Shown here: piece after piece, positions 7,156 to 20,175 of the stretch | Layout of the letters: every line of letters begins with the position of its first letter | Position numbering within the stretch: the first letter of the stretch is position 1 | Translations under genes and position numbers: made by a program | Notes under the pieces: model-generated | Seen by the model: the letters and a program-made list of their open reading frames with translations, nothing else | Databases searched by the model: none | What the model was told of the DNA's origin: nothing | Assembly (NCBI GenBank): GCA_029210225.1 | Contig: JARGOJ010000031.1 | Coordinates: 1,841-22,015 of the forward strand | Direction: 5' to 3' | DNA length: 20,175 nt | From: Planctomycetota bacterium | Lineage (GTDB): Bacteria; Planctomycetota; J058; JARGOJ01

Positions 7156-9816
7156 GTGGATCTCTTCCAGCAGTTTTACCGCCAGATTAACGATATTGAT
7201 CCGATTGAGACTCAGGAGTGGATTGAATCCCTTGAGTCTGTTGTTGAGTGCATCGATCGTTCTCGTGCGGAATTCTTGCTTTATCGTTTGCTTAGTCGCG
7301 CTCGCCAGCTTGGTGTGAGTATTCCTCATACCACTCGCACACCTTATATGAATACGATCCCTCCGACCCTCGAGCCGGAGTTCCCCGGGGACGAGGAGAT
7401 TGAGCGTCGTATTCGTCGATTGATCCGCTGGAACGCGGCGGTCATGGTGACGCGAGCCAATAAGAAATATGATGGGCTGGGGGGGCACCTTTCTAGCTAT
7501 GCATCGTCCGCGAGTCTGTATGAAGTGGGGTTTAATCACTTCTTCCGCGGTAAAGATGGTCGCCAGCGTGGCGACCAAATCTTTTATCAAGGTCACGCGG
7601 CGCCAGGAATGTATGCCCGGGCGTTTTTGGAAGGTCGTCTTTCGACGAACGACTTAGATCATTTCCGACGTGAGTCTGGAAAGGGGAAGGCGGGATTATC
7701 CAGTTATCCTCACCCTCGCCTCATGCCCGAGTTCTGGGAGTTTCCAACCGTTTCGATGGGGCTTGGTCCGATCAATGCGATTTACCAGGCCCGATTCAAC
7801 CGTTACCTTGCGGCTCGTGGTTTGGCAGAGACCGCGAAGTCTCGGGTTTGGGCTTTCCTTGGGGATGGTGAAACGGACGAGCCGGAGAGTTTGGGGGCCT
7901 TGTCCCTAGCGGGACGCGAGCGTCTCGACAACTTAATCTTCGTCGTCAACTGTAACCTGCAGCGCTTGGATGGCCCTGTCCGTGGAAACGGCAAGATCAT
8001 TCAGGAATTGGAGTCAGTCTTCCGTGGGGCAGGTTGGAATGTCATCAAGGTCATTTGGGCTCGGGAGTGGGACGATTTGTTCCGCGCCGACACTCATGGC
8101 TTGCTCTTAAAGCGAATGACAGAGATTCCTGACGGTGACTTCCAGCGTTTTCCGACGATGAGTGGCGCAAAGCTCAGGCAATTCGTCTTTGGAAAGTATC
8201 CTCGTTTGCTCCGATTGGTTGAGCATTTGAGTGATGAGCAGCTCTGTCGTTTGCGCCGTGGTGGTCACGATTACCACAAGCTCTACGCGGCTTATAAAAT
8301 GGCTGAAGAGAGTGATCGTCCAACGGCCATTCTGTGTAAAACAGTGAAGGGTTGGACTTTAGGAGAGGGTTTTGAAGCCCGAAATGTGACTCACCAGATC
8401 AAGAAATTGACGGAGCGTGAGCTGCATGTTTTCCGCGATCGGTTGGAGTTGCCCATTCCTGATTCCAAGCTCAAGGATGCGCCGTACTATCACCCGGGCA
8501 AGGACAGTAAAGAAGTCAAGTATATGCTGGAGCGCCGCCGCGTTTTGGGGGGTTGTCTTCCGAAGCGTCGGGTAGTTGTTCCGGGTATTGAGATCCCTGG
8601 AAACAAAACCTACTCAGCATTCTATGAAGGAACGAAGGGTGATCAGAGCGCATCGACAACTATGGTCTGCGTGAGAATTCTTCATAACCTTTTAAAAACA
8701 AAGGACTTTGGCCAGAGAATCGTGCCAATTGTCTCTGATGAGGCTCGTACATTTGGTATGGAGCCGTTGTTCCGTGAGATTAAGATTTACTCGGCGACGG
8801 GTCAGACATACACCCCTGTGGATGCGGGGGTTCTCATGAGCTACAAAGAAGCAAAGAATGGCCAGTTGCTTCAAGAGGGTATTACGGAAGCGGGGGCTCT
8901 CGCGTCGTTTACGGCGTCGGCGACGAGTTATTCGTCCCATCGTCAATTTACGATTCCGTTCTTCATCTTCTATTCGATGTTTGGATTTCAGCGGGTCGGC
9001 GATTTGATTTGGGCTATGGCGGATGCTCGAGGCCGAGGATTCTTGCTTGGAGCGACTGCTGGACGAACCACCTTGAACGGTGAAGGTTTGCAGCATCAGG
9101 ATGGTCATAGTTTATTGGCGGCTTCGACGGTTCCGTCCTGTCGCGCTTATGATCCGGCTTTTGCGTTTGAGATTGCGATCATTATCGAAGATGCGATTCA
9201 TAAGATGTATGTCGAGAATCAGGACCTCTTTTACTACCTGACGCTTTACAACGAGAACTACCCAATGCCTGCTATGACGGGGGATTGGAAGGACGGGATT
9301 TTAAGGGGTCTTTACCTCTTCAAGCCTGGATCTGAAAAGGGAGTCAAGGCTCAGTTGCTCGGGAGCGGTCCGATCATGCAACAGGTATTGAAGGCTCAGG
9401 GTGTTCTTGCTGAAAAGTATGGAGTCTCTGCGGATGTTTGGAGCGTGACGAGCTATGGCGAGTTGCGTCGAGATGCCTTGGAGGTGGATCGTTGGAATCG
9501 TAAGCATCCGGACGCGCAGGAGAAGTTGCCGTTCGTATCGAAGTGCCTGAATCCAACGGAGGGTCCTATTGTTGCGGCTTCCGACTATATGAAGGCCATG
9601 CCAGATTTGATTCGTCCATGGGTTGAGAAGCCCTTTGTCTCTTTGGGAACGGATGGATTTGGTCGGAGTGATACAAGAGAAGCGCTTCGGCGGTATTTTG
9701 AAATCGATTGGGAAACAATTGTAGCGGCGACATTATCCAAATTGGTTCGTGAAGGTCAGCTGTCAGCGGATGTCTATCATGGTGCCGTCAAAGATCTCGG
9801 ACTCGAAATCGAATAG
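7156..9816 (+). CDS. aceE: Pyruvate dehydrogenase E1 component, homodimeric type, 886 aa
   Basis: Full-length homodimeric-type E1 (~886 aa), i.e. AceE. GTG start at 7156 preceded by GAGGGGG. No aceF or lpd follows. Confidence 0.9.
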   Translation: MDLFQQFYRQINDIDPIETQEWIESLESVVECIDRSRAEFLLYRLLSRARQLGVSIPHTTRTPYMNTIPPTLEPEFPGDEEIERRIRRLIRWNAAVMVTRANKKYDGLGGHLSSYASSASLYEVGFNHFFRGKDGRQRGDQIFYQGHAAPGMYARAFLEGRLSTNDLDHFRRESGKGKAGLSSYPHPRLMPEFWEFPTVSMGLGPINAIYQARFNRYLAARGLAETAKSRVWAFLGDGETDEPESLGALSLAGRERLDNLIFVVNCNLQRLDGPVRGNGKIIQELESVFRGAGWNVIKVIWAREWDDLFRADTHGLLLKRMTEIPDGDFQRFPTMSGAKLRQFVFGKYPRLLRLVEHLSDEQLCRLRRGGHDYHKLYAAYKMAEESDRPTAILCKTVKGWTLGEGFEARNVTHQIKKLTERELHVFRDRLELPIPDSKLKDAPYYHPGKDSKEVKYMLERRRVLGGCLPKRRVVVPGIEIPGNKTYSAFYEGTKGDQSASTTMVCVRILHNLLKTKDFGQRIVPIVSDEARTFGMEPLFREIKIYSATGQTYTPVDAGVLMSYKEAKNGQLLQEGITEAGALASFTASATSYSSHRQFTIPFFIFYSMFGFQRVGDLIWAMADARGRGFLLGATAGRTTLNGEGLQHQDGHSLLAASTVPSCRAYDPAFAFEIAIIIEDAIHKMYVENQDLFYYLTLYNENYPMPAMTGDWKDGILRGLYLFKPGSEKGVKAQLLGSGPIMQQVLKAQGVLAEKYGVSADVWSVTSYGELRRDALEVDRWNRKHPDAQEKLPFVSKCLNPTEGPIVAASDYMKAMPDLIRPWVEKPFVSLGTDGFGRSDTREALRRYFEIDWETIVAATLSKLVREGQLSADVYHGAVKDLGLEIE

Positions 9817-9883
9817 CTGAGGGTCTCCCAAGGAGGAGCTTCTGGAAATGCTCAAGAAAGCTTTGAGTTTCCAGTTTGTTTCT

Positions 9884-9913
9884 TTGCCGAACCTTCGGTG
9901 CTTGGGTTATAAA
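9884..9913 (+). promoter_or_regulatory. Candidate sigma-70 promoter for the kinase gene
   Basis: TTGCCG (9884-9889), 18-bp spacer, TATAAA (9908-9913). About 115 nt upstream of the ATG at 10033. Confidence 0.25.
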
Positions 9914-10032
9914 TTAGAGGCCTTCAGTTTGCAGGTGGAGATGTGTCGGATTACATAACCAGGGAAGGGATCCGATTCTGTAAATGGGTGGAACGTTGAA
10001 TAGCTTGGGGTGCTCTGTTTCGGGGAGCCGTT

Positions 10033-11307
10033 ATGCTTTTTGAACTGAGATTTGTTCATGGCGTGCGTGCGGGTCAGGTTATCAATTTAGATGATAATCA
10101 GACCGTGGTTCTTGGACGTGGAACAGAGACAAACTGTCGCATTCAAGATCCGTCGATTTCACGACGGCACTGCCAGATTACGAACTGTCCGCAGGGCTTA
10201 CTCATAGCGGATCTTGGCTCGTCCAATGGGACCTACGTCAACGGCCAACCCATCAGTCATTGGGTAGCGTTGAACTCTGGGGATCAAGTCGTTCTTGGAC
10301 AAAATCAGGTCGAGATCCATGCGGCGATGATGGTGCAGCAACACCTCTGCACTAGCTGTGGCCGTGAGTTCATGCCTATGGAGTTGACGCAAGGTCGCTT
10401 CAGCCGTGACCCCTCTGGTCGTCTCATTTGCACGGACTGTATGTCAAAGTTCGATTTCGATCCGCACATGATCGAGGGTTACGTCGTCGAGAGCAAGCTC
10501 GGGCAGGGTGCTTTTGGCGCTGTTTTCCGGGCGGTTCAACAGCAAACAGGCCAGGTTGTTGCGTTGAAGACGGTGCGACCCCAGCTCGTTCAAAGCGAGA
10601 GAGACATCGCTCGCTTCTTCCGAGAGGCCAAGGCTGGCGCGGCCTTAGTTCACCCTAATATCATTCGTATTTACGACGCGGGTGAATCTCGTGGCTGTTA
10701 TTACATTGCTATGGAGTATGTTGAGGGGAAGGAGATCGGGAAGCTAATCGAGGAATATGGTCAGATCAACATCGGCTATACCTTGCGGGTTGGAATCCAA
10801 ATCGCGAATGCACTCCAGCATGCTTACGAACGTAGTATTGTCCACCGTGATATTAAGCCTGATAACATTCTCGTTACGGCTCAAGGGCAGGCGAAGCTTG
10901 TCGACTTTGGCTTGGCGAAGAACTTCCAGAGCGCGGGGGTTTCAGGTTTGACGGCGCCGGGAGAGGGCATGGGAACTTTGGCGTATATGCCGCCAGAGCA
11001 GTTGGACAATGCGCTCATGGCTGACCAACGCTCTGACATTTATTCCCTGGGGGCGTCGCTCTATCATATGTTGACGGGGAAGCGTCCCTTTAATGAGAAG
11101 ACGACGCGAAAGTTCATTATGAAAATATTGAACAAGATGCCCGACCCAATTCGCGACCATAATCAGAGTGTTCCACCGGATTTGGAAGAAATCATTGAAA
11201 AGGCCATGGCTAAGGAACCTGAGGATCGTTATGAAATCCCTGAGGATTTTGAACGCGACTTGAAGGACCTCTTTGAACAGATGGCGCGCAATCACGGCGG
11301 GACTTGA
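10033..11307 (+). CDS. FHA domain / C4 zinc-ribbon / Ser-Thr protein kinase, 424 aa
   Basis: N-terminal FHA motif (VVLGRG..CRIQDPSISRRHCQI....GSSNGTYVNGQPI). CTSC...CTDC zinc ribbon. Hanks kinase motifs (LGQGAFGAVF, ALKTV, HRDIKPDNILV, DFGLAK, APE-like PPEQ). SD GGGGAG lies 5 nt upstream of the ATG. Confidence 0.85.
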   Translation: MLFELRFVHGVRAGQVINLDDNQTVVLGRGTETNCRIQDPSISRRHCQITNCPQGLLIADLGSSNGTYVNGQPISHWVALNSGDQVVLGQNQVEIHAAMMVQQHLCTSCGREFMPMELTQGRFSRDPSGRLICTDCMSKFDFDPHMIEGYVVESKLGQGAFGAVFRAVQQQTGQVVALKTVRPQLVQSERDIARFFREAKAGAALVHPNIIRIYDAGESRGCYYIAMEYVEGKEIGKLIEEYGQINIGYTLRVGIQIANALQHAYERSIVHRDIKPDNILVTAQGQAKLVDFGLAKNFQSAGVSGLTAPGEGMGTLAYMPPEQLDNALMADQRSDIYSLGASLYHMLTGKRPFNEKTTRKFIMKILNKMPDPIRDHNQSVPPDLEEIIEKAMAKEPEDRYEIPEDFERDLKDLFEQMARNHGGT

Positions 11308-11512
11308 TTCCATTGTCTCTTTTAGCCTCAATACGCTAGCTTCGTTCAGCTTCTTTTGCTTTGTTCTGAGGGGCATTGGCGGCGGTGATGCTATCTGTGT
11401 AATCCCGAACTATTTCATACTCTAAAAAATTGTTTGGCCTCCCTTCCAACGGACTGTCTGCGTTGACCGTATGGGAGGTATGTGAATCCTATTTTGGGGT
11501 TTCAATCTCAGC

Positions 11513-12895
11513 ATGAAGAGTGAGAGGTCTGTGAATATGAGAATGGAGTCCATGGCTGCGCGGCGTTTTGTTTCTTGGTCTGCCGCCGCTTGTGTGATCT
11601 TGGGCGTGGGGATAGCTCAGGCCCTCATCGCCGACTGGCGTTCTGCTCTTGCTGAAGACCGGGAAATGGTCGAGAATCACAAGAACGCGCTTGTTTCCGT
11701 CATGAAAAAAGTCAATCCAGCTTTCATCTTCATTGGTGGGGGATCCGGCGTCATCATTTCAGAAGATGGCTACATGTTGACGAATAATCACGTGGCTCAG
11801 TCGCGCAAAGTGTGGCAAGTTCATACTCCTGGTGGGAAGAGATACACAGCGGATGTTGTGGGATCCGATCCGCGTGGAGACTTGACTCTTCTCAAATTAC
11901 AAATCAAAGAGGGTGTGAAGATGCCCTTTGTCACCTTTGGAAATTCTGACCTCGCGAAAGCTGGAGACACTGTCTTTGCGGTCGGAAATCCGATCGGTAT
12001 TGGAAATGACGATTACTCACCGACCTTTACTTTAGGTGTGATCTCCGTGGTCAACCGGAATCATTCAAACTATACCGATTGTGTCCAGACAGATGCACCG
12101 ATCAACCCGGGTAATTCAGGAGGCCCCCTTTTGAATCTGAAAGGTGAGCTTCTCGGCATCAATGGAATGATTCAAACTCGCTTCCAAAGCCGCGTGAACT
12201 CAGGGGTCGGCTATGCGATCTCAGTTGAGCAGTGCAAACTTTGGATTCCAGTATTGAAGGCTGCTAAGGGGGGATCTTATCCTCATGCAACGACTTCAGG
12301 CATCAGCGTCCGAAAGAACTTCTCGGAAAGGGGTGCATTGGTAAGGTCTGTTGGGGGCGCTGCAAAAAAAGCCGGAGTTTTGGATGGCGATCGAATCTTG
12401 AAGATTGATGGACGGGTCGTTCGGAACCACGCTCGATTTGGTGGAATTGTTGGGATGTATCCTGGCGGATCGAAGGTCACGTTGACGATTGACCGTAAGG
12501 GAGAGGAAGTCAAGATTCCATTGACTCTGGACAACCGCGGTGGCCGTCGTTTGAGCCGCGCTCCAACTCAGCCTCGTCAGAATCCTCGACAAAACCCAGC
12601 TCCGAATCGTGGCAACGGTGCCTATTTGGGTTGCCGACTTCGTCCGACAGCTGGTGGCGTGAATATTTCAGAGATCGTCCCTGGTGGCCCCATGTCGAAA
12701 TCGAAGTTGAAGGTTGGCGATTTAATCAAAAGCTTTAATGGAGTCAAAGTCGCGAACTTAGATGCTTTGATCACGATGTTGGCGAAGAAGAAACCTGGCG
12801 ACAAAGTCACCTTTGGAATCACTCGTGGTGGCAAGGCGCTGGACATCGAGATGGCCTTGGGTCGTCGTCCTTCGAGACGGATGTCTCAGTCTTAG
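11513..12895 (+). CDS. HtrA/DegP-family trypsin-like serine protease with two PDZ domains, 460 aa, probably secreted
   Basis: Catalytic triad contexts TNNHV (His), GDL (Asp), GNSGGPLLN (Ser). Two PDZ-like segments separated by a Q/P/N/R-rich linker. Signal-peptide-like MAARRFVSWSAAACVILGVGIAQA. The true start may be an internal ATG at 11537 or 11552. Confidence 0.8.
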   Translation: MKSERSVNMRMESMAARRFVSWSAAACVILGVGIAQALIADWRSALAEDREMVENHKNALVSVMKKVNPAFIFIGGGSGVIISEDGYMLTNNHVAQSRKVWQVHTPGGKRYTADVVGSDPRGDLTLLKLQIKEGVKMPFVTFGNSDLAKAGDTVFAVGNPIGIGNDDYSPTFTLGVISVVNRNHSNYTDCVQTDAPINPGNSGGPLLNLKGELLGINGMIQTRFQSRVNSGVGYAISVEQCKLWIPVLKAAKGGSYPHATTSGISVRKNFSERGALVRSVGGAAKKAGVLDGDRILKIDGRVVRNHARFGGIVGMYPGGSKVTLTIDRKGEEVKIPLTLDNRGGRRLSRAPTQPRQNPRQNPAPNRGNGAYLGCRLRPTAGGVNISEIVPGGPMSKSKLKVGDLIKSFNGVKVANLDALITMLAKKKPGDKVTFGITRGGKALDIEMALGRRPSRRMSQS

Positions 12896-12924
12896 TCAAC
12901 CTTTCCAAAATTGGGAAAAAGCGT

Positions 12925-12951
12925 GAAGAGCAGGAGGATCCTGCTCTTTTT
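12925..12951 (+). terminator. Intrinsic terminator downstream of the HtrA-like gene
   Basis: AGAGCAGG-AGGAT-CCTGCTCT hairpin (12925-12945) followed by TTTTTTG. Confidence 0.65.
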
Positions 12952-12971
12952 TGCGTTAACGCTGTCGAGAT

Positions 12972-13297
12972 TTGATACCTGGGACGAGGCGGTTGTGATA
13001 CCTGGGATCATGGGAATCACAAAAATGGGGTCTTATCTGGGTCATAGGAAGAGAATAATGGCGAAGGCATATTGATACCTGGGACCAACAACATCGGGTA
13101 CCTGGGACCAACGATGTTTTATACCTGGGATCGACTTCAACTTGTGTTTGGGTTCCTGAATCCTGGTACCTGGGACCTCGGAGCCTCGGGTCAATTTTGA
13201 TACCTGGGATCGGGGTGACCGAGCGTTTCGTCTTCACTGACGAGCTTTTTATGGACGGACAGCTATGCGTTGATTCTCGCTTCGTTGGTACCTGGGA
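12972..13297 (+). repeat. Array of eight direct repeats of a 12-13-bp motif (G/T)(A/G)TACCTGGGA(C/T)C, plus two degenerate copies, all in one orientation
   Basis: Exact copies at 12972, 12995, 13072, 13095, 13118, 13163, 13197 and 13285. Degenerate copies at 13032 (TATCTGGGTCA) and 13149 (GGTTCCTGAATCC). Start-to-start spacings are 23, 77, 23, 23, 45, 34 and 88 bp. Copies 13072/13095/13118 share the extended unit TACCTGGGACCAAC. Confidence 0.75.
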
Positions 13298-13343
13298 TCG
13301 ATTTGAAGAGTCCTTGGACCCTCAACGAGATGTCTGCTTATTC

Positions 13344-13787
13344 CTATAAGATGGAAAGATTGGGATTTATGGATGAGAGTCTCTGTTTGATGGTCTTAAT
13401 GGACTGGGAGACTTTCAGTTGGTCGAGACCGAGGATCATCCCAATCTCAGCGTCTTCAAGCTCTTCAACGTAGTGCAACATGATGATGTGTTGTTCTTGT
13501 CGTGTCCGGTGCCGGGCGACCAAGGCGGGGAAGGAGGCGGCTTCTTGGGGGCTTTTTGGAATGAAGGTCTGATCGGCGACGAGGGCGTCTTTGACGAGCG
13601 CGGAAAATTCTTCATAGGAGAGTCCAAGGGCGTCGGCGACTTCTGCGTCGTTTGCGGGTCGTCCGAGGGATAGTTCAAGGTCTCCAATAAGTTCGAGGAG
13701 ATCTCTATTCTTTGTGGATGATGGTGGGAGACGTTGAATTTTACCGGACCGAGTGAGGTCGAGAGCGATTTTATGTTGATCCATCAT
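13344..13787 (-). CDS. Truncated sigma-factor paralogue of about 147 aa containing only sigma-70 regions 3 and 4
   Basis: Aligns to the C-terminal half of the adjacent FliA-like protein: LELSLGRPANDAEVADALGLSYEEFSALV vs LETILGRKANDLELAEHLDISLKELDSLV; HIIMLHYVEELEDAEIGMILGLDQLKVSQSIKTIKQRL vs LIVMLYYFEELTMREIGMILDLSESRVCQLHARIVKRL. There is no region-2 sequence. ATGATG at 13787/13784 is preceded by AAAGGGG. The track ORF extends in-frame to a TTG at 13883. Confidence 0.6.
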   Translation of the reverse strand: MMDQHKIALDLTRSGKIQRLPPSSTKNRDLLELIGDLELSLGRPANDAEVADALGLSYEEFSALVKDALVADQTFIPKSPQEAASFPALVARHRTRQEQHIIMLHYVEELEDAEIGMILGLDQLKVSQSIKTIKQRLSSINPNLSIL

Positions 13788-13921
13788 TGAGTACCCCTTT
13801 TGCCTGTCATACACAGACAGTACCCGACTCACAAGAGAGTCTAAGTTTAGTGATGATTGAATATAGAGACTAGTGCCGAACAAACAAAACCACTACTAGC
13901 AGTCGTTCTTTACAGACCTAT

Positions 13922-13950
13922 ACTATATGCAGTGTGACGAAAGATCGCAA
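13922..13950 (-). promoter_or_regulatory. Candidate sigma-70-type promoter for the truncated sigma gene
   Basis: On the minus strand: TTGCGA (13950-13945), 17-bp spacer, TATAGT (13927-13922). About 125 nt upstream of the ATG. Confidence 0.3.
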
Positions 13951-14043
13951 AGTTCTTTTAAAGTCAAAAATCCTACTTCATTAAGTAGTTGGTAGAATCC
14001 CAATACTTATATATCGGAGTGGTGAGTAAGGAAGTGAAGGCCG

Positions 14044-14082
14044 AAAAAAAGGATAAAGCGCGCCTGCTTCGAGGCGCGCTTT
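14044..14082 (-). terminator. Intrinsic terminator of the fliA-like gene
   Basis: Perfect 11-bp stem AAAGCGCGCCT / AGGCGCGCTTT with loop GCTTCG (14055-14082). On the minus strand it is followed by AUCC plus U7 (the + strand A7 at 14044-14050). It lies 50 nt past the stop at 14135. Confidence 0.7.
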
Positions 14083-14134
14083 CGCGTGTGTGCACAGATT
14101 TTATGGGTTTAGAGGCGGATTCCTAGAGAGGATC

Positions 14135-14941
14135 TCAGGAGATGAGTTCGTCTCTGCGATCACCGAGTTCCTTCTGAAGACGTTTCACAATTCGAGCATG
14201 AAGTTGGCACACTCTAGACTCACTCAGGTCCAAGATCATACCAATCTCGCGCATTGTGAGCTCTTCAAAGTAGTAGAGCATGACGATCAGGCGTTCTTTC
14301 ATGTTGAGTCGCTTAGAGACGAGCTCCATGAAATCGGTGGACTGGATTTTGTCGATAGGGTCGACTTCTTTTTTGTCGGCAATGATATCGATGGTTTGAA
14401 CGGCTTTTCCACCGTCATCATCGTGCCATTTATCGGAGAGACTCATGATTTGAGTGGCCGTCCCACCGCGAACCAAGGAGTCGAGTTCTTTGAGGCTGAT
14501 GTCAAGGTGCTCGGCGAGCTCTAAATCGTTCGCTTTGCGTCCCAGAATCGTCTCAAGCTCTTGTTGAGCCGCGCCGACCTTGGAGGCTTTTGTGCGAACT
14601 AGGCGAGGCACCCAGTCAGACTGACGGAGGTGGTCGAGAATCGCGCCACGAACGCGGAGAGCACAGTATGTTTTGAACTTCACGGCGCGTTCGATATCGT
14701 ATCCGTCGATCGCATCCATGAGGCCGAAGACGCCGGCGCTAAACAGATCGCCGAGTTCGACGCTTTGTGGTAACTTTGTGAGTAGGCGCTCAGCGCTGTA
14801 TCGGACGACTGGTAAGTAATGCTCGATGAGGCGGTTTCTGATTCCTTCGTCTTTTGTCTTCTTGTATTCTTCCCACAACTCTCTTGGCGCTTCTTTGACT
14901 TTACCCCGTGAACGGCTTGCATCCCTTGTAATAACTGTCAC
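14135..14941 (-). CDS. fliA: Sigma-28-type alternative sigma factor (FliA/WhiG/SigD family), 268 aa
   Basis: Regions 2, 3 and 4 are present: region 2 (DLFSAGVFGLMDAIDGYD..FKTYCALRVRGAILDHLR), region 4 HTH (ERLIVMLYYFEELTMREIGMILDLSESRVCQLHARIVKRLQ). GTG start at 14941 with SD AAAGGGG 9 nt upstream. Confidence 0.85.
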   Translation of the reverse strand: MTVITRDASRSRGKVKEAPRELWEEYKKTKDEGIRNRLIEHYLPVVRYSAERLLTKLPQSVELGDLFSAGVFGLMDAIDGYDIERAVKFKTYCALRVRGAILDHLRQSDWVPRLVRTKASKVGAAQQELETILGRKANDLELAEHLDISLKELDSLVRGGTATQIMSLSDKWHDDDGGKAVQTIDIIADKKEVDPIDKIQSTDFMELVSKRLNMKERLIVMLYYFEELTMREIGMILDLSESRVCQLHARIVKRLQKELGDRRDELIS

Positions 14942-15003
14942 TATTATGACCCCTTTAATTTATGTATTTCAAAATCCCACTGCCCGAGAATTTGGAACAC
15001 CGT

Positions 15004-15033
15004 CATAGACCCCCCTAGAGTCTATGGATAGAC
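15004..15033. promoter_or_regulatory. Operator-like cluster of inverted half-sites 63-92 bp upstream of the fliA-like start
   Basis: CATAGAC-N9-GTCTATG (15004-15026) overlapping GTCTAT-GG-ATAGAC (15020-15033). Three perfect ATAGAC/GTCTAT half-sites plus a degenerate CTAGAG. Confidence 0.4.
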
Positions 15034-15229
15034 GAGCGACTTCACCCAAAGCTCTCTATCTTGTGTCCCTCTCGACAAAAGACACGATAGCAAGAGTTAT
15101 TATTAGAAGCCAAGTCGGAATTAAAGATGTCTCCATAGTTTTTTCCAAAATAGGGATACATTCACAATCCGCCCCTCTCATGTAGACTGTAAAGCAATAT
15201 AAACAATAGACTTAAGATATAGCGAGGGT

Positions 15230-15919
15230 CCTGTATTCAAATTGTCAAGAAAAGAAAAAAGCCCTCAACGATTGTTGACACAAAAGTGCACTTGAGCAAA
15301 AAAGCACATTTTGTAGGGGTCTTGAGAATTAAACAACACCATATAGTAGAAAAACAAGCAAGATCTAGGCTTCCACCAGCTATTTCATGACCGATAAAAC
15401 GATCAAATTTGAGACTAACCTTAGAACATCCTCTCCTCAAAGATACCTAGTTGCAATCAACACACGCTTATGGCGCCAGTATCACACACCACCAAGACAT
15501 GAAAGCTCAAAAAACGACAGACGGAGCGATCCGTGCAAAGCCAATAAACAAGCCAATTCTCGCGTACCTGGGACAAATCGATTCTCCTCGACATCTTCCC
15601 CCCAAAGCATCCACACTCGCTCCCGCCTCACACTTCTCCACCAATCTGCTTCTTGAAAAAATGTCGCACCCCGCTCAAAGCCCCCAAAACCAACTCTCCT
15701 ACACAAGAACAACTCAAGAACGTCGTGTTTCACGCCCCAACATCCTCGCGCCCCAACAACACCGGCGTTAAACCCTAGAAAGAGAAACAAGCTTCCCTAT
15801 CCTTATTTATATAGGCGAAAAAGGTCTCACTACTCTTTACGCCCGCATATATCGATAAGGGACAAAGCGCCTGTCGGTGGCTTCCATTACAATGAAGCTC
15901 CACAAACGCAACATATCCA
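15230..15919 (+). other. About 690 bp of strongly G-depleted, CA-rich non-coding DNA (+ strand) immediately upstream of dnaG; part of a 978-bp non-coding interval (14942-15919)
   Basis: No convincing ORF on either strand; the track ORFs there translate to low-complexity S/P/T/Q/H-rich peptides without SD. The + strand has very few G (runs of C and A, e.g. CCCCCAAAACCAACTCTCCTACACAAGAACAACTCAAGAAC). Confidence 0.5.
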
Positions 15920-17857
15920 GTGCCAGTACCTGTGAAAGAGGTTGCCGTGGGTCGAATACCCCCAGAACAAATCGATTTGATTCGCGAACGCGCCGATATC
16001 GTCGCACTCATCGGTGAACGCCTTCAACTCACTCAAAAAGGTCGGCAATTTTGGGCCTGCTGCCCATTCCACGGCGAAAAAACCGCATCCTTCAGCGTTC
16101 ACCCAGAACGACAGATATACAAATGCTTCGGCTGCCAAAAAGGTGGCAACATCTTCGGCTTCCTTAAAGACTACGAACGCGTCAACTTTCCCGAAGCCGT
16201 CCGCATGGTCGCCGAAACCGTCGGCATCGAAATCAAAGAAGAGAAAAGCACCAAAGCTTCCCAAAAACGGCAAAGCGAAAGAAAAGGACTCCTTGAAGTC
16301 GCCGATGCCGTTTGCCAATACTTCGAAGACCAACTCTGGACCCCAACACTGACTCACGGACGCAAATACCTCAAAGAACGCGGCATCACCAAAGAAAGCG
16401 CCAAAAAGTTCCGCGTCGGACTCGCCCCCCAAGGCTGGGACAACCTGCTGAAATGGGCCGAAAAGAATCGCGTCTCCACAGACTCCCTCGTCAAACTCGG
16501 ACTCCTCGTTCAACGAGAAAAAGACGGCCGAAACCGCTGCTATGACCGATTCCGAGATCGACTCATGTTCCCCATCTCCGACGACCGCGGTCGAGTCATC
16601 GCCTTCGGAGGACGACGCTTCTCCGACGACCCAGAAACTCCCAAATACATAAACTCCTCAGAAGTCCCCGGCCTCTTCGAAAAGCGACGCGTCCTCTACG
16701 GTCTCCACCACACCAAAGAATCCAGAGCCCGACGCCTCATCATTGTTGAAGGATACACCGACGTGATCATGGCCGTCCAAGCCGGCGTGCTAGGCACCGT
16801 CGCCGTACTTGGGACCGCCTTTGGACCCGATCACATTCCCCTCGTTCGTCGCTTCGCCGACCAAGTGATCGTCCTCTTCGACGGCGATGCCGCCGGCCAA
16901 GCAGCCGCTCAACGATCCCTGGGAGCTCTCGTCCCCGTCGACCTCGAAGTCCGCGTCGCCATACTCCAAGGCGCCAAAGACCCATGCGACCTCATCGTCG
17001 AAAAAGGACCCGACGCCCTCAACCAAATCGTTGATACCGCCCCCGAAGTCTTCGACTTCCTCCTCGACTCACTCCAGGATCAAGCCCAACAATCACTCTC
17101 CGCACGAGCCAAAGCCATTGAAGAAATTCTCAAGCTTCTCGCTCCCATGGACCCCATAAGACTCCATCTCCATATTGGACGCTTTGCTCACCGCTTCTCC
17201 ATTCCCGAAGAAGAACTCCGAGAACGCATCAAAGCCGCTCGCAATCCCAATAAAGGGAAAAAATCTAACGACGGACCCGATGGCGACAATCGCTCCAACG
17301 ATCAAAACAGACGGCGCTCATGGACCCCCAAATTCAAAGGCAAAGGCAAAAAAGGCTTTCCACAAAAACCCGACCCCTTCGCGAACAGCCCCTCCCCCAA
17401 ACAATTTAACTTTGGCCGCGGCGCTGAAATGAAAATCCTAGAAGCCCTCCTCGCCGCACCAACCCACATAGCAACTGTCTTCACAATCCTCACTCCTAGA
17501 CACTTCTCCGAAGGCCCCTCACGGAACCTCGCGATCCGGCTCCAAGTCGCTGCCGACCTCGGACAAACAGTCAGCGAAGCCAACCTTTACAATGAACTTG
17601 AAGGCCGAGAACTCGAACTTCTCACATACCTCGGATCGAAAATTCACGAAGGACAACAACGGGAAAAAGACTATGAATCCGAACTCGCTCCAGAAGCATG
17701 CCACCACATCGTGAAAACCCTCCGGAAGCAACAAAGGGAAGAAGTACGTGGCCTCCTTAAAGAAGCCCTCCGTGAAGGTCGGCAAGAAGATGCCCTCGCC
17801 CTAGAAAAAGAACTCGATTCACTATTCCAAGAAATTCAATCTGCAAACAAAAGTTAA
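15920..17857 (+). CDS. dnaG: DNA primase DnaG, 645 aa
   Basis: CHC2 zinc finger (CCPFHGEKTASFSV..YKCFGCQKGGNIFGFL). RNA-polymerase/Toprim core (IVEGYTDVIM, VLFDGDAAGQAAA). C-terminal helicase-binding region after a basic low-complexity linker. GTG at 15920; a GTG at 15947 (MGRIPPEQIDLIRERADIV) is an alternative start. Confidence 0.9.
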   Translation: MPVPVKEVAVGRIPPEQIDLIRERADIVALIGERLQLTQKGRQFWACCPFHGEKTASFSVHPERQIYKCFGCQKGGNIFGFLKDYERVNFPEAVRMVAETVGIEIKEEKSTKASQKRQSERKGLLEVADAVCQYFEDQLWTPTLTHGRKYLKERGITKESAKKFRVGLAPQGWDNLLKWAEKNRVSTDSLVKLGLLVQREKDGRNRCYDRFRDRLMFPISDDRGRVIAFGGRRFSDDPETPKYINSSEVPGLFEKRRVLYGLHHTKESRARRLIIVEGYTDVIMAVQAGVLGTVAVLGTAFGPDHIPLVRRFADQVIVLFDGDAAGQAAAQRSLGALVPVDLEVRVAILQGAKDPCDLIVEKGPDALNQIVDTAPEVFDFLLDSLQDQAQQSLSARAKAIEEILKLLAPMDPIRLHLHIGRFAHRFSIPEEELRERIKAARNPNKGKKSNDGPDGDNRSNDQNRRRSWTPKFKGKGKKGFPQKPDPFANSPSPKQFNFGRGAEMKILEALLAAPTHIATVFTILTPRHFSEGPSRNLAIRLQVAADLGQTVSEANLYNELEGRELELLTYLGSKIHEGQQREKDYESELAPEACHHIVKTLRKQQREEVRGLLKEALREGRQEDALALEKELDSLFQEIQSANKS

Positions 17858-17948
17858 TCAACGATTTTTTTTATTGAACTTATGTGCCCGGCCATTCGTT
17901 TGAAAGGGCAAGAATTGCTAGGAATACAAGTCGATTCTCGTTTTTGAA

Positions 17949-17978
17949 ACAGGGTGATTTGACCCCTGCTTCAACCGC
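17949..17978 (+). promoter_or_regulatory. Candidate sigma-70 promoter for rpoD within the dnaG-rpoD spacer
   Basis: TTGACC (17949-17954), 18-bp spacer, TATAAA (17973-17978). About 265 nt upstream of the rpoD ATG. Confidence 0.35.
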
Positions 17979-18246
17979 TTTTTATAAAGGATTCATTGAA
18001 TTTGGGGCCGTTTCCCTTAAACTCTTCCAACCTTTTTCCGCTCCGAGATGTGTGTTAAGGACAGTTCCCTCAGGTTGAACGTCCGCCATCCGGGACAGAT
18101 GGGATTTGGTCATCCATACTAATTATCTGCGTATTTTTTTCGACGCCCTATATCGATGATCTCTGCAAGCGCGGATTAAACATTGTGGTCAAGGGATACC
18201 CCTTCGATAGTTTCCATGACTATCTCAAGGAAACTCAGGAGTAAGC

Positions 18247-20175
18247 ATGAGCCGTTCGTCGGTCACTGAAACCAAGAAATCTAATACGAAGAAATCTTCA
18301 ACCACAAAAGCGGAGGGCACGGCGAAAACCAAATCCTCCAGCTCCCCAGCGTCAGCAAAGGAAAGCAAAAGCAAAGCCGCACCCAAAAAACGCGCCGCAG
18401 CAAAACCCGCCAGCAAAGCTAAAAAAACACCGGCTAAAAAGAAGGCTCCTGCGAAGAGCGCAGAAAAGGCTGCGGAAGTCGAAACCGCCGATGCGCCAAA
18501 AACCGCTGCCAAGAAAGCTCGGGCGAAAACTAAAAAACCCGCTGCCGCTGCGAAAACAACGAAAAGCCGCGCTAAAGCTAAAAAACCCGCCGCTAAGGGG
18601 AAATCCCAAAAGACTGCTGCCGGTAAGGGCAAAAAAGGGAAGTCAAGTAAGGAAAAGTCTGACTTCAGCGACGAAGAGCTTGATGAAGAGTCCACCCTCA
18701 CCCTCGACGACGAAAGTCTTGATGAAGATGACGACGTCGTCGATCCCGATGGAACCGCAGACGGTGAGGAAGACGAAACCGCTGACGAACTCGACGATGA
18801 AGAACTCAACGAAGACGACGAAGACGACGAAGACGACGATGAAGAGCTCGGCCGAGCTCGAGACGAAGCCTACGAAGAACTCGCCGGGGAATACCACCGC
18901 ACCGTCACCGAGAAGATCGACGACCCGGTTCGCATGTATCTCACTCAAATGGGTGAAATTCCTCTTCTCTCACGTCAAAAAGAACTTGAATACGCCAAGC
19001 GCATCGAAATCTTTCGCAAACGCTTCCGCTACCTCGTATTCTGCTCTCTCGAACAACTCACGCAGGGTGTTGAGATTCTTGAAAATGTCATGCAAGGGCA
19101 GCTCGCCTTTGACCGGACCCTCAAAATTGCGGGAACCGAAGAGACAACGAAAATTGAGCTCACTGAGCGCCTCCCCCATGTCGTCGTCATCCTTCGCAAG
19201 AACCTAGAGCGTGTTCGCGCCCTCTTCGATAAATCACGCGCCAAACTCCGCGCCAAAGAACGAAGAGAGGTCCTCCAACTTCTCAAAGTCAGACGCCGAC
19301 GCACTATTTCTATTCTCGAAGAGTGTGGCGTCCAAATTAAGCTCGTTCGCCCAATGCTCGACGTTCTCCGCGAACACCTTGCCATGATGCGCCGCATCAA
19401 AAAGGACATCGAAGTCGGTGGTACCAGCGGACCTGAAGCCAAAATCTCTGTGGAAAAACTCAAGGCCATTGAAGATCGCCTCGGATTTGGTTTCGAAGAC
19501 TTCAGCAACCACATGCACTACCTCGAAAAGCGCTTCACCGCTTACGAGAAAGCGAAGCGTGACCTCTCCGGAGGAAACCTCCGCTTGGTCGTGTCCATCG
19601 CTAAGAAGTATCGCAACCGTGGTCTCTCCTTCCTCGACCTCATTCAAGAAGGAAACACTGGCCTCATGAAGGCCGTGGAGAAATACGAGTATCGCCGAGG
19701 ATATAAATTCTCGACCTACGCAACATGGTGGATTCGACAAGCGATCACACGATCCATCGCCGACCAGGCCCGCACCATTCGTATTCCCGTCCACATGATC
19801 GAAACCATGTCGAAACTGCGGAATATCTCCAAGAAGCTCGTTCAAGAAATGGGTCGCGAACCCACAATTGAAGAACTAGCCTCGAAGCTTGGTATGCCCG
19901 TGGCCGAGTGTCGGCGAATCATGAAGATCTCAAAGCACCCAATTTCCCTTGACCGTCCTATCGGCGAGAGCGACGACGGTTTCTTTGGTGACTTCATTGA
20001 AGATAAATCGGCCGAATCACCGGTCAACGCCGCCACATACGAAATGCTTAAAGACAAGCTTGAGAAGGTCCTCGAAACCCTGACCTTCCGTGAGCGCGAG
20101 ATCATCAAACTTCGCTATGGAATCGGCGACGGATACACCTACACTCTCGAAGAAGTTGGACGGATCTTCAAGGTC
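18247..20175 (+). CDS. rpoD: Primary sigma factor RpoD (sigma-70), 3'-truncated by the window edge; N-terminal histone-H1-like K/A/P-rich tail and acidic tract precede region 1.2
   Basis: Open frame from the ATG at 18247 (SD GGAG upstream) to the window end (643 codons, no stop). It is absent from the ORF track because it has no stop. Region 1.2 ([29 protein letters not shown]), region 2 ([73 protein letters not shown]), region 3 and the start of region 4 ([27 protein letters not shown]) are present. Confidence 0.9.

Follow-up and report, generated by a model that had tools for sequence, protein, structure and literature searches.

A sharp, long-lived switch of strand composition with terminus-like polarity between a fliA-like sigma gene and dnaG in a Planctomycetota bacterium

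Along the + strand of a 20,175-nt stretch of DNA from a Planctomycetota bacterium (contig JARGOJ010000031.1; hereafter the window), a long run rich in G and T gives way abruptly to DNA rich in C and A, and the change falls in the spacer between a fliA-like sigma gene and dnaG. A preliminary description of this DNA took the change for the signature of a replication terminus and named a recent inversion or translocation breakpoint, or an assembly chimera, as alternatives. The question raised by the locus is thus whether the switch is genuine, how long it has existed, and whether replication forks meeting at this place would account for it. Composition was expressed as keto skew, (G+T-A-C)/N on the + strand, or as keto3, the same quantity at third codon positions. 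The features of the window are listed below; genes were named from Pfam matches, and the noncoding block and the unconserved spacer were delimited in an alignment of three genomes.

259-1869, - strand: murJ
1866-3005, - strand: thiD2-thiE, encoding a ThiD2-ThiE fusion; its stop overlaps the murJ start
3068-3982, + strand: usp, encoding a tandem Usp protein
4073-6889, - strand: MVP-like protein with major-vault shoulder and repeat domains
7156-9816, + strand: aceE
10033-11307, + strand: FHA-Ser/Thr kinase
11513-12895, + strand: htrA, encoding an HtrA-type protease
13344-13883, - strand: sig_s, encoding a small sigma-like protein (region-4 match only)
14135-14941, - strand: fliA-like gene (fliA), encoding a FliA/WhiG-type sigma factor
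14942-15919: AT-rich fliA-dnaG spacer of 978 nt, between divergent genes
14942-15156, - strand: noncoding block of 215 nt directly upstream of fliA
15157-15356: partly conserved, A-rich, promoter-like region (GC 0.36, keto skew -0.20)
15357-15782, + strand: unconserved, C/A-rich, G-poor spacer upstream of dnaG
15920-17857, + strand: dnaG (primase), with extreme use of C/A-ending codons
17858-18246, + strand: dnaG-rpoD intergenic region, without skew
18247-20175, + strand: rpoD, cut by the window end
1-2240: left domain (murJ and the 3' third of thiD2-thiE), + strand weakly C/A-rich, keto3 -0.11
2150-2500: left change point, within the intact thiD2-thiE gene; keto3 goes from -0.11 to +0.27, an origin-like polarity
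2241-14941: G/T-rich domain (the island) of 12.7 kb and 8 genes, defined by third-position and intergenic composition

No tRNA genes or Rfam families were found in the window, and none of its genes encodes a transposase. The MVP-like protein (4073-6889, - strand) is a bacterial protein of 938 aa that matches the shoulder domain of the eukaryotic major vault protein (E 3e-20), in addition to a repeat domain, and shows 96% amino acid conservation in relatives. The small sigma-like protein evolves fast, with 66-75% amino acid identity versus 97-99% for its neighbours; its called length varies between genomes (179 vs 146 aa), and in relatives one to three small sigma genes occupy the position. In the N-terminal third of RpoD (18250-18900), a long stretch rich in Lys, Ala and Thr precedes an acidic stretch of low complexity; the two raise AT skew above +0.5 there independently of any strand effect.

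The asymmetry is a property of the strand, independent of gene orientation. In sliding windows, GC skew of the + strand was above zero between about 2.2 and 14.8 kb and below zero from there to the window end, and AT skew mirrored it throughout. In the island, pooled keto3 was +0.27 and all 8 genes had values between +0.16 and +0.36, four of them on the - strand (the thiD2 part, the MVP-like gene, the small sigma gene and fliA; pooled, +0.327) and four on the + strand (usp, aceE, the kinase gene and htrA; pooled, +0.235). The G/T-richness first described at about 2.4-14.9 kb, whatever the gene orientation, was thereby borne out, as was the C/A-richness described from about 15.2 kb onwards: keto3 was -0.63 in dnaG (GC3 skew -0.75) and -0.29 in rpoD. 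Two exceptions reported at the time were also real. Third positions of murJ hold equal G and C, and the 3' part of thiD2-thiE (1872-2154) has a keto3 of -0.26; together these form a second, opposite switch, a point that had been left unweighed.

Counted exhaustively, third positions were T 32, G 33, C 22 and A 13% in aceE, C 49, A 31, T 13 and G 7% in dnaG, and C 40, A 24, G 18 and T 18% in rpoD. Earlier hand tallies for aceE (T 40, G 30, C 22, A 6%) and dnaG (C 53, A 30, T 10, G 6%) were right in direction and somewhat exaggerated in size. Far from matching the other + strand genes when counted exhaustively, the outcome held in advance to speak against a switch, dnaG and rpoD differed from them, and the comparison of the whole island with dnaG plus rpoD gave p = 3e-108. 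Fourfold-degenerate sites had the same signs as third positions in each domain (dnaG: C 60%, G 7%) and fell into two codon classes, one in which G and C are about equal and T greatly exceeds A, the other in which C greatly exceeds G and A and T are about equal. Both classes were reproduced by an additive model combining, for GC skew, a replication term of about +/-0.29 with a coding-strand term of about -0.25. The - strand genes of the island have the same composition as rpoD, whose codon use is of the lagging type. Intergenic regions have the sign of their surroundings (pooled island value, +0.11). The skew of dnaG is about twice that of rpoD, and on this account a gene-specific component is present in it.

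Segmentation by the Bayesian information criterion (BIC) divided the window at three places: within thiD2-thiE, near 2241; in the interval 14941-15920; and where dnaG borders on rpoD, near 17.7 kb. The last 90 codons of fliA were still at +0.37 and variable intergenic DNA was already negative from 15157 onwards, so that the interval 14942-15230 originally given for the switch proved right. The switch is at most 0.2-0.4 kb wide, lying between the fliA start codon and 15157-15357, and falls within or beside the 14942-15156 block; to its right, the window shows only 5 kb.

Against the best species-representative planctomycete genomes, identity of dnaG was only 35-44%, and dnaG scans of genomes and metagenomes returned relatives of 44% identity or less. 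The closest dnaG proteins were 93, 87, 74, 73 and 59% identical. All five contigs that carry them show the sigma-fliA genes (-) followed by dnaG-rpoD (+), and several also keep aceE-kinase-htrA in the same order. Independent assemblies containing the junction, with alignable intergenic blocks, come from other samples (Logan SRR23272332 and SRR23272297, JGI 3300072015 and TARA). The window (W) was compared mainly with relative A (L085 and L166, from the same sample; dnaG 93%) and relative B (L081; 87%), and also with L082 (59%). In relative B, keto3 was +0.43 to the left, then -0.28 in fliA, -0.74 in dnaG and -0.41 in rpoD; in relative A it was +0.11 to the left, then -0.35. Strength thus followed the order B > W > A in both domains, as would be expected from one lineage-specific mutational bias with opposite polarity on each side.

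The age of the two states was assessed from synonymous divergence. Third-position identity at conserved amino acids among W, A and B was only 7-28% above saturation, as given by independent codon draws, and each genome keeps roughly 40% of ancestral synonymous states. On this evidence both skew states must be actively maintained near equilibrium and are not relics, because with synonymous sites so close to saturation a decaying relic would require an impossible starting skew to leave +0.27 in W or +0.43 in B. L082 (GC 70%, GC3 about 0.9) has the same gene order and orientation, with no skew and no switch; therefore, the skew arose after the gene order was fixed. Nor do dnaG loci switch as a rule: across 45 others from Planctomycetota, right-minus-left GC skew averaged +0.04 (sd 0.08, minimum -0.07), as against -0.29 here. 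In a relative at 55%, dnaG and its leader are unskewed, yet rpoD is C3/A3-rich (keto3 -0.25). Combined, these results mark the switch as a real and long-standing boundary, with strand-asymmetric mutation pressure acting in opposite senses on the domains to either side.

Members of the clade sharing this gene order (the window, L081 and L166/L085 versus L082 and L167) range in GC content from 51 to 70% and in GC3 from 0.55 to 0.9, and in strand bias from none to extreme, a range that suggests lineage-specific changes in DNA repair or replication fidelity. On the contigs compared, conserved gene order repeatedly stops at the 3' end of rpoD, and different genes follow in different relatives: L082 and L083, both from TARA and with identical dnaG proteins, diverge fully just after rpoD (about 14.5 kb in locus coordinates), one contig continuing with ABC-2 transporter genes and the other with a PAS histidine kinase gene, and the 74% relative differs again (OmpA). 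Both Logan contigs of close relatives end inside rpoD, and a search with the RpoD protein found no close full-length orthologue.

Alignment of the spacers of W, A and B separated mutation pressure from codon choice. The segment 15357-15782 is essentially unalignable (10-35% identity per 50 columns), with indels that are not multiples of three, and its GC skew was nonetheless -0.41, -0.29 and -0.32 in the three genomes (-0.41 in the window); AT skew was +0.28 in the window and about +0.3 across the three. The composition is caused by mutation pressure rather than codon choice, since a neutral, unalignable spacer takes the same composition as the third positions of dnaG. This fast-evolving segment has a C/G ratio of about 2.4 and, if transcribed, resembles Rho-binding (rut-like) leaders. 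The dnaG-rpoD spacer (17858-18246), which is without skew, is 90% identical across the three genomes, its last 200 nt being nearly invariant; its composition is therefore constrained, and it is likely to be the rpoD promoter or leader.

The block 14942-15156 shows about 90-98% identity across the same three genomes despite near-saturated synonymous sites. Its - strand is predicted to fold into a long structure (-51 kcal/mol) that includes the hairpin CATAGAC-N9-GTCTATG, and its few substitutions lie mostly in predicted loops; in three genomes, no covariation was seen in the fold. It had no Rfam match and was not recognisable in the 59% relative. A 26-codon ORF on its - strand was not called a gene, conservation being at the nucleotide rather than the protein level. 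The block probably serves the fliA-like sigma gene as a structured leader or a regulatory element.

The position of the switch differs between close relatives by a single gene. The fliA protein is 97-98% identical among W, A and B, and yet the ratio of G+T to A+C at its + strand third positions was 164/105 in W, 99/170 in A and 98/171 in B (W versus A and B, p about 2e-8). The change point therefore lies in the sig_s-fliA spacer in A and B and in the fliA-dnaG spacer in W; all right-hand boundaries are at gene borders. Neither spacer showed a length difference or an insertion among the three genomes. As judged from these alignments, the boundary has moved by one gene without structural change. 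A search for a Ter-like motif common to both alternative boundary positions found none in all three genomes. A 12-mer, ACATTCACAATC, occurs at 15158-15169, directly after the conserved block, and also, inverted, in relative B (L081, at about 7990), in the sig_s-fliA spacer that is the boundary site of B; it is absent from A, and the match is probably due to chance.

The second switch, at the left end of the island, was supported by a delta-BIC of 66, with flanking chunks at -0.26 and +0.28. Relative A has its own BIC change point inside thiD2-thiE, at the equivalent of about 2496, and its contig L166 extends the left flank by at least 12 kb, which is weakly C/A-rich (-0.11) over 8 genes on both strands, among them those for Tricorn protease, M20 peptidase, FGE-sulfatase, fpg and priA. 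An inversion would not explain this border either, since the order usp-thiDE-murJ-Tricorn is kept in a 71% relative and no inverted or direct repeats flank the 2241-14941 island beyond chance 9-11-mers. The visible structure is thus weak minus, plus, strong minus, and not one arm against another. To our knowledge, an origin cannot sit inside a gene.

Among established processes we know of none but replication, through its direction, that is strand-specific, acts regardless of gene orientation and can differ between adjacent domains. The lagging-strand template is single-stranded for longer and loses C and A by deamination, and leading strands turn G/T-rich. We infer that replication direction underlies the asymmetry and that forks converge at the fliA-dnaG spacer. 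Forks would move rightward through 2.2-14.9 kb and leftward through dnaG-rpoD to meet in the intergenic region, the + strand gaining G and T to the left of the boundary and C and A to its right. Because the switch is complete within about 0.4 kb, forks would have to meet at a specific site (a fork barrier or a dif-like sequence) and not stochastically. Transcription of dnaG-rpoD would then be head-on to replication. The placement of these genes on the lagging strand, regarded as atypical in the preliminary description, follows from the fork rule but is less odd than was thought, because about half of the genes of Planctomycetes are lagging: on average some 50% lie on the leading strand, and average strand bias is low (PMC4613354).

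A terminus-type boundary at the fliA-dnaG junction is the explanation that we tentatively prefer, at somewhat under an even chance. The terminus-like signature first proposed retains its polarity and loses its long G/T arm: a replichore arm should stay G/T-rich, but the G/T state ends at about 2.24 kb, inside an intact and syntenic gene, where an opposite, origin-like switch lies 12.7 kb to the left and is shared by relative A. That this locus is the single terminus of the chromosome is for that reason doubtful, clearly more so than fork convergence as such; were unexplained switches to recur at intervals of 10-15 kb in this lineage, the prior for a unique terminus here would be low. A suggested search for a dif site returned no match better than shuffled sequence, which is weak evidence, as dif prediction has failed for Planctomycetes (PMC3025954). 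The gene-specific component in dnaG and the coincidence of every right-hand boundary with a gene border also weigh against the terminus reading.

The unexplained left switch gives weight to a different account, in which the 12.7-kb G/T island (2241-14941) in C/A flanks is one of many local domains of a skew mosaic unrelated to a terminus, produced either by local fork reversal (a polar barrier with secondary initiation) or by a patchwork acquired through homologous recombination with oppositely replicated relatives. We regard this as unlikely, though a possibility to be taken seriously. BIC supports a pair of change points of opposite polarity in W and in A alike, the left flank of A is consistently negative on both strands, the position of the left change point within a gene suits a recombination junction or a boundary of replication direction and does not suit an inversion, and skew inversions inside a replichore have been described in complete genomes (Chen et al. 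2020, PMC7111523). However, recombination patches would not share boundaries between lineages whose synonymous sites are nearly saturated, the skews of the island (+0.27 to +0.43) are too strong for relics, and the left flank is so weak (-0.11) that it could itself be a relaxing relic; moreover, the frequency of switches is judged from only about 30 kb of context. We know of no bacterial mechanism for stable 10-kb fork-direction domains. The specific proposal that fork direction is locally and stably reversed across the 12.7-kb block, by a polar barrier near fliA/dnaG with a secondary, non-oriC initiation zone or by many initiation and termination zones chromosome-wide, arises because the G/T block is opposite to both flanks in several lineages, with no rearrangement and with one border intragenic. 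It seems very unlikely and, if true, would be unprecedented for a bacterial chromosome.

That dnaG is far more extreme than any other gene (-0.63 versus -0.29 for rpoD) would also fit an effect confined to the operon, the dnaG-rpoD unit and its long leader being kept C/A-rich over an ordinary G/T replichore with fork direction unchanged, whether through a mutation bias linked to transcription or through selection on the mRNA (for low structure, a Rho-binding-like leader with C above G, and codons ending in C or A). The right-hand change points do fall at gene borders, the C/A-rich spacer may represent a 5' UTR, and rpoD is C/A-rich at third positions in the 55% relative with unskewed dnaG. We nevertheless consider this decidedly improbable: fliA of A and B has the same + strand C/A excess although it is encoded on the other strand and lies upstream of the promoter region between the divergent genes; the match in composition between rpoD and the - strand genes of the island is what a mirror-image strand effect predicts; neither L082 nor the 45 other Planctomycetota have a C-rich dnaG-rpoD; and transcription-associated bias enriches the sense strand in G/T, not C/A, which is the opposite direction. 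Where skew reverses locally in a bacterial genome, an inversion or translocation is usually responsible, and gene order to the right of rpoD does vary among relatives, but a breakpoint, recent or ancient, joining DNA of opposite replichores is highly improbable here. The adjacency and orientation of aceE-STK-htrA-fliA-dnaG-rpoD are identical in the 59% relative (GC3 0.9, no skew), which excludes a breakpoint at the junction, and usp-thiDE-murJ-Tricorn persists at 71%; the left boundary lies inside an intact gene, no repeats flank the island, the skew is too strong for a relic after near-saturating synonymous turnover, and fliA changes sign without any rearrangement. The recent breakpoint originally offered is thus set aside, the junction being present in five assemblies and the gene order being older than the skew. 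A replication origin of reversed skew polarity, with forks diverging from the fliA-dnaG region, would suit a long (978 nt), AT-rich spacer with strongly conserved blocks and would make dnaG and rpoD co-directional with replication. It is scarcely credible, since the polarity of the switch is opposite to the minus-to-plus change at oriC, the fliA-dnaG region contains no DnaA boxes at <=1 mismatch and no enrichment at <=2 mismatches (no DnaA-box cluster occurs anywhere in the window), there are no repeated motifs and no dnaA, dnaN or parAB nearby, and we know of no bacterium with C-rich leading strands. As to a chimera of two unrelated contigs joined at 14.9-15.3 kb, the sequence does come from a short MAG contig of 22,015 bp, but the possibility suspected at first is refuted, with a negligible chance left to it, by the same fliA-dnaG junction in five independent assemblies, including other samples, with alignable intergenic blocks.

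Skew shift points are familiar, and a terminus, if this one is simply that, is an ordinary part of every chromosome. Less ordinary are the strength of the bias for the phylum, the one-gene shift of the boundary without rearrangement and the conserved intragenic counter-switch 12.7 kb away. Should the locus be a fork-convergence site, it would provide a sequence landmark for replication termination in a phylum for which dif prediction has failed, and would point to a site-specific arrest element for which the conserved noncoding blocks beside fliA are candidates. The speed of strand-specific mutation pressure is also illustrated, in that the synonymous sites of a 98%-identical fliA were rewritten to the opposite codon class; such rewriting can mislead codon-usage-based detection of horizontal transfer, prediction of expression and phylogenetics based on third positions.

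Among known systems, the rpsU-dnaG-rpoD operon of Proteobacteria resembles this locus in having dnaG followed by rpoD and a conserved internal regulatory region; unlike it, the locus lacks rpsU, the place of which is taken by a fliA-like sigma gene in divergent orientation and a leader/spacer of about 0.6 kb, and the likeness has no bearing on skew. A short domain opposite to its flanks recalls the skew reversals caused by inversions, which make cumulative plots jagged (aberrant patterns are noted in PMC7111523), but here gene order is unbroken, one boundary is intragenic, no repeats flank the domain and the skew is too strong for a relic. As in the codon dichotomy of Borrelia and many Firmicutes, two strand-set codon classes arise from replication and coding-strand terms; unlike those bacteria, the host belongs to a phylum low in strand bias, the Planctomycetota (PMC4613354), and its close relatives differ about threefold in strength. 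With the dif/Ter terminus, the differences are that no dif-like sequence was found, that the G/T arm extends for only 12.7 kb before an opposite switch, and that the boundary lies on different sides of one gene in close relatives; the likeness is drawn from local skew. It is nevertheless to the shift points at the termini of E. coli and B. subtilis that the locus is comparable in the change from G/T to C/A on the + strand, in its presence at synonymous and intergenic sites irrespective of gene orientation, and in a sub-kb transition whose location is stable across related genomes.
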